Shown here piece after piece: positions 39,495 through 54,036 of a stretch of DNA of 64,000 nt; the first letter of the stretch is position 1, and each line of letters opens with the position of its first letter. Source of the stretch: Escherichia coli (GTDB taxonomy: Bacteria > Pseudomonadota > Gammaproteobacteria > Enterobacterales > Enterobacteriaceae); NCBI RefSeq assembly GCF_024223415.1, contig NZ_CP100500.1, one strand, 5' to 3'. Made by a program: the position numbers and the translations under genes. The notes under the pieces were generated by a model, which saw only the letters and a program-made list of their open reading frames with translations, was not told the DNA's origin and searched no databases.

Positions 39495-39821
39495 TCAGGG
39501 ACGTGATGGCGTAAAGATAAATTGTCTCTTCACTCCCTGACGGGGACTATTCTTTTCAAATCTCCATTTCGCCATGGCCTTCACCACTTCATCACGAAAC
39601 AAATTATGAGGCTCTGAGCGGAGAAAAACGATCCGTGTCACAGTCCCGTCAGCACCAATATCGAACTTAACCTCAACCAGCCCCTTGATATAATTTGCTG
39701 CAGCATATTCCGGATATCGTGGATACACCGTCACTAATTGCCGGGGCTCATCAGCTTTTTGCTGCGAGCATCCCACTGCCAGGGCAGATAACAGAAAAAG
39801 TAGTGAAAGGCGTCTTTTCAT
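39495..39821 (-). CDS. Lipoprotein consisting of a TonB C-terminal-like domain
   Basis: ATG at 39821 (AGGA RBS) gives 108 aa: lipobox LAVGC then ..YPRYPEYAAANYIKGLVEVKFDIGADGTVTRIVFLRS.. resembling TonB_C. Confidence 0.6.
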   Translation of the reverse strand: MKRRLSLLFLLSALAVGCSQQKADEPRQLVTVYPRYPEYAAANYIKGLVEVKFDIGADGTVTRIVFLRSEPHNLFRDEVVKAMAKWRFEKNSPRQGVKRQFIFTPSRP

Positions 39822-40453
39822 TTTTATTCCTACGGGTCTTATTCTGACAATATATCCTGTGTTCCAGACTGCCACATCACCACATCCTGTGCCATTATCT
39901 GACTCACATTACATACATCGCATCAGGATACAGTAGTAGCACTTTCTGTAATACAGCTTCCGGTTTCTTCCACCATCGCACCGGACTGGCGAGCATGAGG
40001 GACAAACCCGCGAACCATAAACGCGGTAAAAACCCGGTGTGCATCGTTTTTGATTATTCCCGCACACTCGCGCAGAAGGAGTTCCCCGTCGGGCTACGGT
40101 CATGGTTAATGCGGGAATACAGCGACGATACAGCGCATGATGTGTCAGGCTTGAATACCTTTATCCGTTAAAAGGGATATCAGTTAAGTTATCCCGTGTA
40201 GGGTATAAGCCATTATCAAAGCCACTCTGTAGGGAGTGGCTTTTGTAATGGCAATAAAAAAGCCCCGCGAATGCGAGGCTAAATCCAGGTATTTTTAATG
40301 ACTGGCTCTTATCTCAACGCAGCCCCTTACCGCGCGCCAGATGCTCAATATCAAGCATCAGCAATGAGATGTTTAATCTGGATTCACTCCAGAAGTGATC
40401 ACCACCCTGTCTACAGAGCCAGATGTGAAGGATGATGAGTAAAATTATCGCTA

Positions 40454-40921
40454 TCATCGAAGGCATTGCGTCCTGATGTATTCCTGAAGCGTTCTCAGTG
40501 CTGTTTGGTCGCGGATAATTCCGTCCCGGACACCGAGAACGTTTCGTCCAGCAACTGGAGAGAGTTCGACGGTGGCATCATTGCCCATGCCGGAGGCGCT
40601 GGAGGTTTCGGCTGAGGATGGCACAGGGCATTTTCCTTTGACGAGCACCCTGCCACCATTATCAAGCTTGCGCCGAAGAGCATCATTTTCAGCTTTCGCA
40701 TCAGCTAACTCCTTCGTGTATTTTGCATCGAGCGCAGCAACATCACGCTGACGCTGCTGCATGTCAGCGATGGTGGCGGTCGCCTGCTTCAGCTCACTGA
40801 CTTTTTTATCACGTTGTTCTTTGTAGGCTATGGCGTTATCACGGTAATGATTGACCGCCAACGACAGGCAGACGATGATGCAGATAACCAGAGCATAAAT
40901 AATCGCGGCGACTCTGCTCAC
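40454..40921 (-). CDS. Spanin inner-membrane subunit Rz
   Basis: GTG at 40921 gives (M)[29 protein letters not shown].. matching lambda Rz. Confidence 0.88.
40495..40701 (-). CDS. Spanin outer-membrane lipoprotein Rz1 (embedded in Rz, +1 frame)
   Basis: [21 protein letters not shown].. with proline-rich PKPPAPPAW, like lambda Rz1. Confidence 0.85.
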
Positions 40922-41451
40922 TGATCTATCCCCCAACAGGCTAATGCGCTTTCCTGGTCACGACGAATAACCTGTCCATAGCAGTTATTTGAACGGATAC
41001 GGCAGTCACGCCCACCATCCTTTATCCACCAGCGAATCGCCTCGCAGGCGCCTTTTCGATCACCGGCATTAAGCCGCTTATAAAACGTCGACGGGAAACA
41101 CTTACCGGGGCCAATGTTATAGGGACAGAATGACGCAATACCCGCTTTCTGTGGTTCGGTCAGAGGTACTTTAATATTGCGCTCCACCCATGCCAGTGCC
41201 TTATCACGTTCAATAGCGTTAACCTGGTCGCATTTTTCCTTCGACAGCTTCATTCCGGGAAAAACGGGTTTTCCATCCACCATCGTGGCACCCCGACAGA
41301 TGGTCCAGATGCCGGACCCATCGCGGTATGCCGTTGTGTGGTTACCCTCTTTTTCGTCCAGAAACTGATCAAGTATCTGAGGAGCAGATGCGCCAGCACC
41401 AATCAGCGCCAGAACGGCAGCCGACAGGCCGTATCTGATTTTTGCGTTCAT
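40918..41451 (-). CDS. SAR endolysin (T4-lysozyme-like GH24 with signal-arrest-release N-terminus)
   Basis: 177 aa; N-terminal weakly hydrophobic Gly/Ala-rich segment; resembles phage 21 R-type lysozyme. Confidence 0.82.
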
Positions 41452-41574
41452 GTATATTTATCAGGATCTAAAGGTTTATAACCCTGGATATATCAGGTAT
41501 ATAATCCAGTACCAGCATGTCTCATAAACATACCCGTTCAGGAAAACCAAACGACAACAGATGAGGCTTCAGAA

Positions 41575-41952
41575 ATGAACAGTAAAGAAAATTTGCGCAG
41601 TAGATTTTTGCAACTAATGACAGAAAAAGTTAAATCAGCGCTACTTCCACTTATGGTGGATAATAACGAAGCAACGAGCAGCATCCTTGCAGACCCTTAC
41701 GGTAAACTCTCGCATAAAACGCTGGATATTATTATGAGTGCATTAACACCCCGTATGCTTCAACACCTGAAACAAGATATTAACGCATGGGTGAATGAAG
41801 AATTGAGCCCCCCCTGTTCATGGGACAGACATTATGCATGGCAGCAAAAAATGAGGATTTTCAATTCATTATCACTAAAGTTCAGAGAACCGAAACAGCG
41901 TCCCTTCCCTCTGGAATCAGACAAAAAACAACCTGATCCCACAGGCCCGTAA
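41575..41952 (+). CDS. Hypothetical protein encoded on opposite strand between holin and endolysin
   Basis: 125 aa ORF with GAGG RBS and AT-rich promoter-like upstream; inverted-repeat hairpin downstream. Confidence 0.55.
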   Translation: MNSKENLRSRFLQLMTEKVKSALLPLMVDNNEATSSILADPYGKLSHKTLDIIMSALTPRMLQHLKQDINAWVNEELSPPCSWDRHYAWQQKMRIFNSLSLKFREPKQRPFPLESDKKQPDPTGP

Positions 41953-42108
41953 TATTTTGAATACCGTGATTATTGATATCACAATGAAAGCTATTCCGCA
42001 CAGTTATGCCCTGCTCCCCACGGGGCATGCCTCATGAAACGTTCCGGGCGTTTCATGTTCCCGGATTTTGTTAAAAGGTATATTATCCCCTCACTCCCGG
42101 GATATTCG

Positions 42109-42381
42109 TCATATTTCTTTTGGTGCCTTTTTCGCAATCTCAGCCACAGCATGTGCCGTAGCCGGAACATTACCGGCATTAGTTCGTTCCAGAATTTCGA
42201 GCAATATGCGGGTTCGTTTTTCCTGCTCCCGTTTGTTAAGGCGATAAGTAAGAACGCCAAGAATGATACTGAACGCCACGCCGATAATAAATCCCCAATC
42301 CTGCAGTGACAGGCTGGCAAAGAACGCAACAAGTCCTGCGCTGCCGTATGCAGCGTTACTGTATCGTTCGTCCATTCTCAT
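42109..42381 (-). CDS. Pinholin-like class II holin
   Basis: 90 aa, two TM segments and charged C-terminus; pattern similar to S21; paired with SAR endolysin. Confidence 0.72.
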   Translation of the reverse strand: MRMDERYSNAAYGSAGLVAFFASLSLQDWGFIIGVAFSIILGVLTYRLNKREQEKRTRILLEILERTNAGNVPATAHAVAEIAKKAPKEI

Positions 42382-42796: not shown

Positions 42797-42873
42797 TGGA
42801 CCGCCACCGGGGACTCGAACCTCGCACACTCAACTTAAAGGGTTGACGCTCTTTCCTGATGAGCTAGTGGCGG
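42797..42873 (-). tRNA. tRNA-like gene with non-canonical anticodon loop CCUUUAA (by analogy to Stx-phage argN/argO position)
   Basis: Cloverleaf with 7-bp acceptor, GCTC/GAGC D-stem, TTCGAGT T-loop, CCA encoded; C33 and one T-stem mismatch. Confidence 0.55.
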
Positions 42874-42874
42874 T

Positions 42875-42950
42875 TGGTGGCCCTTGCTGGATTTGAACCA
42901 GCGACCTGGCGATTATGAGTCGCTCGCTCTCACCACTGAGCTAAAGGGCC
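42875..42950 (-). tRNA. tRNA with CAU anticodon (ileX/ileZ-like tRNA-Ile2 or Met)
   Basis: GGCCCTTTAGCTCAGTGGTGAGAGCGAGCGACTCATAATCGCCAGGTCGCTGGTTCAAATCCAGCAAGGGCCACCA folds as canonical cloverleaf. Confidence 0.8.
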
Positions 42951-43160: not shown

Positions 43161-43856
43161 TCAATCTACTTTTGCAACACTTTGCTTTGAAAATGCCGCC
43201 TTTTGTTTTGAACGTGTTCTCATTACAAACAATAAAGCCTCACTATCCAGTCGGTGAAAAATGTGTTTCATTGCAACCCAGTGACGAGTAAATGTTTTGG
43301 ACCAGTTTTTAGTTGTCACTCCCGCCAGTAATGCCAGCTCCTGGTATTCATAACTTTCCCCACCAAAAAGTTCTGCTTTTACTGCCTGCGCCGCCAGCCA
43401 GATTAATTTTTTCAGGCGTTCCTGCGTTTTCCCTGCAATTTTTCTGGTACCTGATTGAGTATTAAATTCATTCCACGCCCACTGTGTTATCGCGATCTGA
43501 TATTCCCAACAAATACTCCCGCTGTAACTCCACAACAACCAGGCTTTATGATGTTCTTCAAGAGACAGAACAGCCCGCCGCCACGATGATGTCGAAAACT
43601 CAACCGGGCTGACCAGGGCAATTGATGAGCCTTTCGCCAGTGATTGTTTTCCCGGGATTGGTGGATTATCCCGCGTTATCATTTTTCCAGTCACTTCATC
43701 GCGGTACCGGATTTTTTTACGCCTGTAACGCCCTGTATCAAACATGGCATTCTCCTGCCAGGCCTCAAGCTGCCCTTTTGTTGATCCACTCAAATCGGCG
43801 GTGGCAATCATGAGTTGCTGACGAACAAACTGTAAATACTGGTTATTCATGCGCAC
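43161..43856 (-). CDS. Putative late-gene antiterminator Q (QuuQ/YdfT-like)
   Basis: 231 aa; sits downstream of rusA and DUF968 gene and upstream of tR' and lysis genes, as QuuQ in Qin prophage. Confidence 0.55.
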   Translation of the reverse strand: MRMNNQYLQFVRQQLMIATADLSGSTKGQLEAWQENAMFDTGRYRRKKIRYRDEVTGKMITRDNPPIPGKQSLAKGSSIALVSPVEFSTSSWRRAVLSLEEHHKAWLLWSYSGSICWEYQIAITQWAWNEFNTQSGTRKIAGKTQERLKKLIWLAAQAVKAELFGGESYEYQELALLAGVTTKNWSKTFTRHWVAMKHIFHRLDSEALLFVMRTRSKQKAAFSKQSVAKVD

Positions 43857-46270: not shown

Positions 46271-46426
46271 TTACTCCTCAGGTTCGTAAGCTGTGAAGAC
46301 AGCGACCTCCGTCTGGCCGGTTCGGATTCGTACCTCGCAGAGGTCTTTCCTCGTTACCAGTGCCGTCACAATGACGGTAATACAGATGACGATCAGGGCG
46401 ACTAACATCGCCTTTTGCTGCTTCAT
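46271..46426 (-). CDS. hok: Hok/Gef family type I toxin
   Basis: 51 aa MKQQKAMLVALIVICITVIVTALVTRKDLCEVRIRTGQTEVAVFTAYEPEE, nearly identical to remembered HokD/RelF. Confidence 0.88.
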   Translation of the reverse strand: MKQQKAMLVALIVICITVIVTALVTRKDLCEVRIRTGQTEVAVFTAYEPEE

Positions 46427-46717
46427 AGCCTGCTTCTCCTTGCCTTTCGGCACGTAAGAGGCTAACCTAGATTTGCCGTTCATAGATTGAGCCTCAGATT
46501 AATGTTAAGCGTCTTGCCGGACGCGTAATGTTAACTGGGGCTTTTCTCTATCTGCCTTTTGGGGTTCATGCCTGAGACAGATAGCCTCAAGCACCCGCTG
46601 CAATTCTACTTAACTCTCCTTTTCCCGCAAACCATTTTTATCCCCAGCGGCAAATCGAATACACCACCAGCGCCACCGCCATCGCAATTCCTACCGTTGT
46701 GAATGCTTCAGGCCAGG

Positions 46718-51581: not shown

Positions 51582-51633
51582 TACCCACAGGTAAACAAAA
51601 GTCAATACCCTTGGGTTGTTTACCTTGCGGTAA
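51582..51633. promoter_or_regulatory. Right operator region: three TACC(C)-N-(G)GGTA-type half-palindromic sites between cro-like and repressor genes
   Basis: TACCCACAGGTA, TACCCTTGGGTT, TTACCTTGCGGTAA. Confidence 0.55.
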
Positions 51634-51652
51634 TCGCATCTATTATTTACCT

Positions 51653-52072
51653 ATGGACAAATATGAATTTAGACGACAACAACTCATCAAAATTCGTGAT
51701 GAGAAATGCGATGGTAAAGCGGTTAACGTGGCCAGAAAGATCGGTCGCGAGCCTTCTTATGTATCAAGAATGTTGTACCCAGAGGGGAAAAAAGGAAAAA
51801 AACGGATCGCTGATGATATGGTGGAGATTATAGAAGAGTCCTTTGGGTTACCCCGGGGATGGATGGATGGTATCGTTTCATCATCAACGAACACAGCCTC
51901 CAATTATGAAACAAGGGTTCTAACGCCACGACAACGTATTTTTTTAGATCTCTTAGACGAACTGCCTGAAAGTGAAGCGGATAACTTATTAAAAACTCTT
52001 GAAGAGAAAAAACAGTATTACAATATGATCTACGAAGAAATCCGTAAAAAGAAAGCACAAAACGCATCATAA
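51653..52072 (+). CDS. CI-like prophage repressor (HTH, no obvious peptidase domain)
   Basis: ATG at 51653 gives about 139 aa; HTH ..AVNVARKIGREPSYVSRML..; divergent from cro-like gene. Confidence 0.7.
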   Translation: MDKYEFRRQQLIKIRDEKCDGKAVNVARKIGREPSYVSRMLYPEGKKGKKRIADDMVEIIEESFGLPRGWMDGIVSSSTNTASNYETRVLTPRQRIFLDLLDELPESEADNLLKTLEEKKQYYNMIYEEIRKKKAQNAS

Positions 52073-52675: not shown

Positions 52676-53292
52676 AACCAATTTCCTCTCGGGTAACAGA
52701 CCCCTCAGAGGATACCACCTCGCCTGACGTGGTTAAAAGCAGGCACACAACACGAAAGCGCACGGCGAGGTAGCTGGTTCATATATAGCCTGTCGTTAAA
52801 TTTTCGTCGACCGTGCGCTTCCGGTTGTGGCACTCCGCGAAATGGCGCGGCGGTAAGCATGGCGGGGTTCCCTTCCCCTTGAGGACACCGGGTTGTCAGG
52901 TTGACCATGCGCCTGAGTGACAACCCCGCTGCAACGCCCTCTGTTATCAATTTTCTGGTGACGTTTGGCGGTATCAGTTTTACTCCGTGACTGCTCTGCC
53001 GCCCTTTTTAAAGTGAATTTTGTGATGTGGTGAATGCGGCTCAGCGCACGCGGAACAGTTAAAACCAAAAACAGAGTTATGGGTGGATTCTCTGTATCCG
53101 GCGTTAATTGTTAACTGGTTAACGTCACCTGGAGGCACCTGGCACCGCATCAACAAAGTTCACTTCGGTGATGAAAGGTAAGAGAAAATGTTGAATGTAG
53201 CTATTGAAAACCAGTACGGGTGGAATTATAGTGCACCTGCACCTCATAAAACGGGTGCCGGGCGTGGAAACCCGAAAGTTACTCGAGCGCAT

Positions 53293-53316
53293 AACCGCGC
53301 CGAAGCGGTTTTTTTA
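53293..53316 (+). terminator. Intrinsic terminator in leftward early leader (tL-like)
   Basis: AACCGC-GCCGAA-GCGGTT followed by T7. Confidence 0.6.
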
Positions 53317-53484
53317 TGCGTAATGCACAGCCACATTCAGATAATGGTGGGGCGTGCAGGGCAGCTGCAAGGCTGGCCGGGTTCTCGAGTGACCGGTATT
53401 TCCACCCCTGTACGTCTCGCCACCCTTATGGTCGTGGAAAGCCTCGGTGGTGAGTTAATTAACTTAACACTTGAGGATGCCATC

Positions 53485-54036
53485 ATGGCTACTACCCTTA
53501 CCCTTTCTCACCCTGACGTAACCATTGAAAATGGTCGCGCTGTCACTACGTCTATTGCGATCGCAGAATTCTTCGGCAAGCAGCATCACCATGTTGTTCA
53601 AAAAATAGAGGCCCTCGAATGTTCTGAACGCTTTTTAACCAGCAACTTTTCGCGGGTTAAATTCGAGCACCGTGGCAATACCTACAATGCCTACCAAATC
53701 ACCAAAAACGGCTTCGTTTTCCTGGTGATGGGCTTCACGGGCAAAAAGGCCGCTGCATTCAAGGAAGCCTACATTGCCGAGTTCGACCGCATGGAGGAAG
53801 AACTGCGCCGGAATAACACCACACCCGCTGACAAAATAATCCCGGGTGATGGCCGCACCCTGGTTATCCGCTTCGACGAACACGGCTACATCAAATTCAC
53901 CGAAACCGTTCCTGATGGCGCACTGGTCTGTACTCTGGATACTTTCCGTTTTTATCTGGAAAAGCAGGGATGGACTCTCATAAACCGGGGCGCAATTAAA
54001 AATATGACCGTCGAGCAGTTGCTGAGTATTAAATAG
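53485..54036 (+). CDS. Rha family phage regulatory protein
   Basis: ATG at 53485 with GAGGA RBS; ..TTSIAIAEFFGKQHHHVVQKIEAL.. Rha motif; ORF track start 53188 is an upstream extension across the terminator. Confidence 0.72.
   Translation: MATTLTLSHPDVTIENGRAVTTSIAIAEFFGKQHHHVVQKIEALECSERFLTSNFSRVKFEHRGNTYNAYQITKNGFVFLVMGFTGKKAAAFKEAYIAEFDRMEEELRRNNTTPADKIIPGDGRTLVIRFDEHGYIKFTETVPDGALVCTLDTFRFYLEKQGWTLINRGAIKNMTVEQLLSIK

Follow-up and report, generated by a model that had tools for sequence, protein, structure and literature searches.

The window analyzed here is a stretch of 64,000 nucleotides of Escherichia coli DNA of lambdoid prophage origin. The late operon of the prophage lies on the minus strand and runs from the Q antiterminator through two tRNA genes to the holin and, across a gap, to the lysozyme and Rz/Rz1 genes (Table 1). 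The gap extends exactly from the start of the lysozyme gene (41451, minus strand) to the stop of the holin gene (42109, minus strand) and measures 657 bp (41452-42108). An earlier note on this DNA had described a spacing of about 650 bp between these two genes, a 125-aa ORF on the strand opposite to them, a GAGG ribosome-binding site and a downstream inverted-repeat hairpin; all of these are present, with the hairpin being preceded by a second one. DNA identical to the whole gap is found in 19 of 5,426 complete E. coli genomes, the set on which all the E. coli counts given below are based. In the immunity region the cII-like and cro-like genes are on the minus strand and a divergent cI/DicA-like regulator (51611-52072) is on the plus strand, indicating that the plus strand is the lambda "leftward", repressor-carrying strand. 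The gap ORF shares this strand with the regulator.

Table 1. Features of the prophage late operon and of the gap between holin and lysozyme, in window coordinates
Feature	Position	Strand	Basis or comment
Rz and Rz1	40454-40936	-	Late operon
Lysozyme, 177 aa; borders the gap downstream, in late-strand direction	40918-41451	-	phrog_7 endolysin, E 7e-64
Candidate -10 element, a perfect TATAAT 69 nt before the ATG; weak -35	41500-41505	+	Alignment of related loci
GAGG, Shine-Dalgarno-like, 8 nt before the ATG at 41575	41563-41566	+	Read from the sequence
Gap ORF, 125 aa and stop, PHROG 1853 member, predicted soluble five-helix bundle	41575-41952	+	ORF list, profile, dN/dS, AlphaFold2
21-codon C-terminal extension by stop loss	41887-41949	+	TAA of relatives is GAA at 41887-41889
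Decayed non-coding remnant of the partner 3' end (C-domain of the PHROG 1085/YdfR family), about 100 bp	41935-42034	-	DNA similarity
Second hairpin, 9-bp stem, 7-nt loop	42005-42029	+	RNA fold
Hairpin, 11-bp stem (9 Watson-Crick and 2 G-U pairs), 3-nt loop, then UUCCCGGAUUUUGUU; candidate terminator	42033-42057	+	RNA fold
Holin, 90 aa; borders the gap upstream, in late-strand direction	42109-42381	-	phrog_1350, E 3e-29
Two tRNA genes	42797-42950	-	Between Q and holin, late-operon leader
Q antiterminator	43161-43856	-	phrog_304

Several other elements of the prophage merit mention. The tRNA pair consists of a Lys(UUU) tRNA and a tRNA with a CAT anticodon, which is called Met by ARAGORN and Ile by PGAP. 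A search with the covariance models of Rfam 15 gave six matches in the window, none of them within 41452-42108; matches elsewhere in the prophage, at 46421-46596 (minus), 52953-53004 (plus) and 53239-53427 (plus), are the sok antitoxin RNA (beside hokD), DicF, isrK and the C4 antisense RNA, with isrK and C4 positioned just within, or upstream of, an Ant/Rha-like regulator ORF (53188-54036). Downstream of Rz, a 126-aa ORF of the late strand (39495-39875, minus) combines a lipobox-like stretch at its N-terminus (LSALAVGC) with a C-terminal TonB domain (TIGR01352, E 1e-12). The PHROGs label of 'Rz-like spanin' (phrog_1267) for this ORF looks like a mis-transfer, and it may be a further accessory gene, situated at the position of lambda bor.

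The GC content is 0.40-0.42 over the gap ORF as against 0.49-0.54 in the flanks, and the plus strand is A-rich. The AT-rich promoter-like region of the earlier note is borne out in part: the 123 bp upstream of the ORF are indeed AT-rich (about 40% GC) and contain a conserved TATAAT, whereas a good -35 element is lacking and a two-hexamer consensus scan of this region recovered no full sigma-70 site. In an alignment of nine related loci the TATAAT block (GGTATATAATCC) stands 67-73 nt before the ATG and persists even beside differing neighbor genes; it is kept in the window and in loci L027, L022, L009 and L012, reads TACAAT in L006 and is missing from L018, L002 and L003. The GAGG motif is represented by GAGA, GAAG or GAGG in the aligned relatives. 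On the downstream side, the candidate terminator hairpin possesses an imperfect U-tract and is identical in L027, but the fold of the whole 171-nt downstream segment is ordinary relative to shuffled sequences (z = -1.3), and a consensus terminator scan gave terminator-like counts that do not exceed those of the shuffles. A divergent subfamily of related loci (L002 at ~3905-3945, L003, L013, L014, L015, L030 and L031) has an inverted repeat 50-90 nt upstream of the start codons, comprising CGCCAGTG, a spacer of 4-8 nt and CACTGGCG followed by a T-run, with wobble-compatible changes in its arms. This repeat, which may be a 5' stem-loop, an attenuator or a terminator, is not present in the subfamily of the window, where the TATAAT block stands instead.

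The gap ORF and its protein family

The gap ORF is very probably a real protein gene. The profile HMM of PHROG 1853 recovers its product with an E-value of 4.8e-41 (141 bits), with residues 1-102 spanning profile positions 57-158 of 159. The homologues that were collected, 15 close and 21 representative sequences, have a canonical length of 104-107 aa, and homologues of conserved length are known from E. coli, Shigella and Salmonella. An exhaustive HMM search over 1.84 billion representatives yielded only 21 matches; the single large one, P0034 (1,344 aa), was rejected as a HEAT-repeat artefact. Pairwise Nei-Gojobori estimates, confined to comparisons with unsaturated dS, gave dN/dS values of 0.14-0.33, and those of the window ORF against the nearest canonical copies are 0.19-0.30, indicating that the amino-acid sequence is under purifying selection. 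The AlphaFold2 model of the ORF, built from only 8 sequences, is a five-helix bundle with a mean pLDDT of 89 and a pTM of 0.80. Sister alleles with a frameshift are also on record (P0002, P0004 and P0005).

With 125 aa, corresponding to a product of 14.5 kDa, and a lost stop codon the window ORF falls outside the canonical length of the family, while its 104-codon core is uninterrupted. Canonical genes end in AGA TAA, as against AGA GAA at 41884-41889 in the window, and in DNA alignment A4 the ending TTCAGATAACC of L006, L009, L012 and L018 is replaced by TTCAGAGAACC. The canonical proteins accordingly terminate in LSLKFR, an instance of the LS(x)(x)(x)R ending of the family, and the window protein continues through a read-through tail of 21 codons (EPKQRPFPLESDKKQPDPTGP), which is proline-rich and probably disordered. 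As a consequence of the lost stop codon, PGAP records the interval 41617-41886 as a pseudogene ('missing C-terminus') in NZ_CP172217.1 and NZ_CP080260.1 (in both entries the adjacent holin is labeled 'hypothetical protein'). This call appears unproven rather than wrong, because the 104-codon core is intact and hundreds of contigs have entries for the exact 125-aa allele and for the 111-aa version given by an alternative start call. The NCBI pipeline currently discards this stop-loss allele as a pseudogene despite its intact conserved core.

The highest Kyte-Doolittle 19-residue mean of the ORF protein is 0.76, and scans of it detected no transmembrane or hydrophobic segment and no signal peptide. 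It is thus predicted to be a soluble cytoplasmic protein with a core of about 104 residues folded as a five-helix bundle. Profile and structure searches, which the earlier note had proposed for this protein, established its membership of PHROG 1853 and gave no function from Pfam, NCBIfam, PADLOC, PDB or BFVD. Specifically, Pfam and NCBIfam searches returned no match, the defence models of PADLOC-DB returned no family even at E <= 1, and a profile search of PDB sequences returned only designed helical proteins (E >= 0.02). Structure searches of PDB, AFDB and BFVD found no neighbor informative about function; the AFDB matches to the model, with TM-scores of 0.9-0.99, have the same predicted fold and are members of the family. 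All members of PHROG 1853 are annotated only as hypothetical, so that membership in itself says nothing about function. Literature searches on DUF1327, on ydfR together with holin, on WP_000138558 and on genes between holin and endolysin found no study of the gap gene, and a paper by Owen et al. on prophage transcriptomes describes analogous antisense accessory loci, but the PHROG 1853 family is absent from it (PMC7067206). Family members vary in pI between 4.6 and 9.5, a spread that speaks against a generic nucleic-acid binder. Given that no catalytic, DNA-binding or membrane features are recognizable, the modeled protein most likely acts by binding another macromolecule.

The variable holin-lysozyme slot and the convergent partner gene

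The slot between holin and lysozyme is a known variable site. The earlier note had taken holin and endolysin genes to be normally adjacent, and this holds for the holin relatives (77% aa identity) of PhiR46_1 and UPF_BP1, which directly adjoin a lysozyme, implying that the gap of the window is extra DNA. It does not hold for mEp460 and Stx2 phage 86, in which the slot is filled: that of mEp460 contains a YdfR/DUF1327 gene on the late strand (gp55), and that of phage 86 contains a YdfR-family gene together with a homologue of the window ORF. The lysozyme DNA of the window is 94% identical in mEp460 and PhiR40_1, both of which lack the gap gene, and homology to these phages stops 26 bp upstream of the lysozyme ATG (about window position 41477). 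In most E. coli loci the ORF and its upstream region tend to travel with the lysozyme type of the window, and the joint to an unrelated holin lies within 156 bp beyond the ORF. As regards the lysis genes themselves, the lysozyme N-terminus resembles a phage 21-type signal-anchor-release segment, which is usually partnered by a class II holin of small size (seen in L006, L018 and L022). The holin of the window is of another type (phrog_1350), with relatives that are paired with a different lysozyme, making this a mosaic holin/endolysin combination.

Members of the family occur in 673 of the 5,426 complete E. coli genomes (~12%, or about one in eight), including O157:H7 EDL933, with roughly 800 copies in total. 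Among the records of a phage genome collection, queried with both the window ORF and a Salmonella-type member, they occur in 4 of 50,697, namely in Stx2 phage 86 and the Stx2a 12E129 phages. The family is thus commoner in prophages than in sequenced phages, and the gap gene is a recurrent accessory gene already present in databases rather than a one-off oddity. All intact copies are located within lysis cassettes and are oriented against the late operon. In L002, L003, L006, L007, L018-L022 and L028 the copy separates holin from lysozyme, and in L013-L015, L017, L030 and L031 it lies immediately upstream of the holin. Position and orientation are the same as in the window in phage 86 (gp06), Stx2a 12E129 and EDL933, and a lysozyme adjoins the family member in L002, L003, L006, L018, L022 and L028. 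Two loci retain the ORF intact at 104 codons in degraded surroundings: L012 has a frameshifted, truncated lysozyme and only a 28-residue trace of the partner gene described below, and L009 has a decayed partner and neither a detectable lysozyme nor a detectable holin. Small as this sample is, such retention suggests a selection that does not depend on the phage's own lysis.

In most of the diverse loci the family gene is arranged tail-to-tail with a late-strand gene of 184-321 aa (L002, L003, L006, L007, L013-L015, L017, L030 and L031), with the 3' ends of the two genes abutting or overlapping by up to 33 nt. The partner matches PHROG 1085, and only its long forms, like gp05 of phage 86, contain a Pfam domain, the N-terminal DUF1327 (YdfR). 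This pairing spans E. coli and Salmonella at 35-50% identity of the ORF, which implies that it is old. Each gene is also found alone: the ORF in the window, L022 and L028, and the partner in the Salmonella locus L029, where only the last ~12 ORF codons are left (3763-3963). A toxin-antitoxin-like obligate pair was considered and is ruled out by these solitary occurrences of each gene. The commonest E. coli arrangement, the P0011 type found also in O157:H7, has the ORF without a partner. In the window a tblastn search for the partner gave no significant protein-level match, and what is left is a decayed piece collinear with the 3' end of the L003 partner (local DNA score 45, with shuffles reaching at most 37; z = 6.1). 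The same piece is similar to the spacer of L022 (z = 5.7), which in turn is similar to the partner genes (z = 8-10). An AlphaFold2 model of an ORF-linker-partner fusion, read for per-residue confidence only, gave values of 89-97 for the ORF and 64-81 for the C-domain of the partner, with a pTM of 0.39. In L031 (~4110-4346) a GC-rich hairpin with a T-run on the late strand, between ORF and holin, looks like an intrinsic terminator, through which a Q-modified polymerase would have to read.

Possible roles and comparison with known systems

The architectural and contextual observations on the locus suggest an independent accessory transcription unit in the holin-lysozyme slot, antisense to the Q-dependent late operon. 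It is an extra gene between genes that are adjacent in related phages, with a base composition unlike that of its neighbors, as is typical of morons. The earlier note's reading of the ORF as a cargo gene thus stands as far as a genuine gene inserted opposite to the late operon is concerned, with moron-like GC content, a candidate -10 element and a hairpin, and finds no positive support as regards the defence role suggested alongside it. We consider it likely that the locus combines such a moron-like unit with the relic of a two-gene convergent module. Ancestrally, this module would have comprised the gap gene and a convergent late-strand neighbor of the YdfR/PHROG 1085 type, which in the window would have been lost by decay. 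The ORF would be transcribed from its own weak sigma-70 promoter, marked by the TATAAT block, while the late operon is silent, and its protein would bind and antagonize, or otherwise modulate, YdfR/PHROG 1085-type late proteins. The targets might be those of its own prophage or of co-resident or superinfecting lambdoid phages, and transcription of the ORF would affect the late mRNA, if at all, only incidentally. Taken as a whole, an accessory moron-type gene acting in this manner is on balance the most probable explanation. Its specific element of an antagonist or modulator of the YdfR-type partner, for which genetic linkage is the sole basis, is possible if rather doubtful.

A first functional hint for the DUF1327 family is provided by a report of 2026 that YdfR of the Qin prophage binds the N-terminal catalytic half of RNase E and pulls down or co-purifies with RNA (PMC13232886). 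This makes a role of the ORF-partner module related to RNA decay conceivable. In its boldest form, the proposal would be that of a convergent two-gene lysis-cassette module not recognized before, in which a helical protein encoded on the prophage strand antagonizes a late YdfR-type binder of RNase E and RNA, with orphan copies acting in trans; this we regard as a long shot. If true, orphan copies in polylysogens such as O157:H7 would affect the fate of late mRNA, lysis or release of other phages, amounting to a form of inter-prophage competition.

Among the alternatives, it is possible, though fairly unlikely, that the product is a lysogen-expressed defence or superinfection-exclusion protein directed against unrelated incoming phages. 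The moron architecture, the placement antisense to lytic genes, which is typical of accessory loci (PMC7067206), the retention of the gene in decayed prophages and the much greater frequency in prophages than in sequenced phages noted above would all suit such a protein. However, the lack of matches among the PADLOC, Pfam and NCBIfam models and of informative structural neighbors in PDB, AFDB and BFVD, the nature of the product as a single 12-kDa helical protein devoid of an effector domain, and a position restricted to lysis cassettes, with linkage to one particular late gene, speak against it. With all intact contexts in lysis cassettes, a host-directed role fits no better than a lysis-related one.

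Such a role might be that of a lytic-cycle regulator which functions together with the YdfR-type protein, for example as a timing or anti-lysis factor, and is expressed at induction rather than in lysogeny. This reading draws on the location of every intact copy in a lysis cassette, in one or the other of the two positions given above, and on the fact that the ORF is tightly linked to a late-operon gene in both E. coli and Salmonella. It is unlikely, however, as the strand of the ORF prevents it from joining the Q-dependent transcript, and as the gene is dispensable in closely related lysis cassettes and kept where the lysis genes are dead. The window copy might, on the other hand, be a decaying functionless relic, orphaned by deletion of its partner, as hinted by the missing stop codon, the partner's reduction to a remnant, the PGAP pseudogene flag in two genomes and the frameshifted sister alleles. 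The uninterrupted 104-codon core, the dN/dS of 0.19-0.30 against the nearest canonical copies, the presence of the exact allele on hundreds of contigs and the predominance of intact partner-less copies in E. coli, including O157:H7, make this quite unlikely, and a proline-rich tail behind a folded core need not disturb the fold.

Least probable is a role at the RNA level, in which plus-strand transcription would collide with or pair to the late transcript, tuning lysis timing or silencing leaky lysozyme expression, with the ORF being incidental: the antisense orientation, the 3' overlaps of up to 33 nt in partner-bearing loci and the precedent of STnc6030 of BTP1, an antisense RNA that functions within the late genes of a prophage (PMC7067206), are outweighed by purifying selection on the protein (dN/dS 0.14-0.33) with its confident and conserved predicted fold, the intact ORFs of L009 and L012 where holin and lysozyme are gone or broken, the absence of Rfam matches in the gap, the phages with 94%-identical lysozyme that do without the gene, and a predicted transcript (~41512 to ~42060) that misses the holin and lysozyme coding sequences as well as the lysozyme start region (<=41470). 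Antisense control of lysis timing, as envisaged by the earlier note, is therefore unlikely as the selected or main function, given that selection acts on the protein and that the predicted transcript would pair only with spacer RNA.

Returning to the accessory-gene reading, the gap gene would seem to be an ordinary hypothetical moron of a recurrent uncharacterized family, not new to databases. If expressed in lysogens, it would add an uncharacterized accessory protein to the prophages carried by ~12% of the complete genomes of E. coli, Shiga-toxin-producing lineages among them. The holin-lysozyme slot emerges as a recurrent landing site for accessory genes, and the most interesting thread is the conserved pairing, which offers a handle on two families that have no assigned role in the phage life cycle.

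The closest known counterparts are the members of PHROG 1853, such as gp06 of Stx2 phage 86 (YP_794053.1), E. coli WP_000138558.1 and UniProt A0A2Y0YWC2, which share family, position, orientation and predicted fold with the window ORF, the phage proteins being 46-47% identical to it in amino-acid sequence. Unlike these relatives, the window copy lacks a convergent YdfR-family partner and carries the 21-residue stop-loss tail. The YdfR/DUF1327 genes (ydfR of Qin, the customary occupant of this site, and gp55 of mEp460) fill the same slot between holin and R21-type lysozyme, but are encoded on the late strand and are unrelated in sequence to the ORF; of the C-terminal part of such a partner the window has only a decayed piece. 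A further parallel is bor of lambda, a small gene at the lysis cassette that lies opposite to the late operon, downstream of Rz, and encodes an exported lipoprotein with a serum-resistance phenotype. Like bor and the morons in the sense of Hendrix and colleagues, the ORF has candidate promoter- and terminator-like signals of its own, an odd GC content and an absence from close relatives. In contrast to Bor, its product is predicted to be cytoplasmic and is unrelated in sequence, and the gene is situated between holin and lysozyme. Homologues of bor are themselves found beside Rz, opposite to the late strand, in L002, L029 and L031. The best precedent for an antisense reading of the gap gene is STnc6030 of the Salmonella prophage BTP1, a lysogen-expressed transcript antisense to late genes that mediates superinfection exclusion (PMC7067206). 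That RNA encodes no protein and overlaps its target's coding sequence, whereas in the window selection is on a protein and only the spacer would be covered by the predicted transcript.
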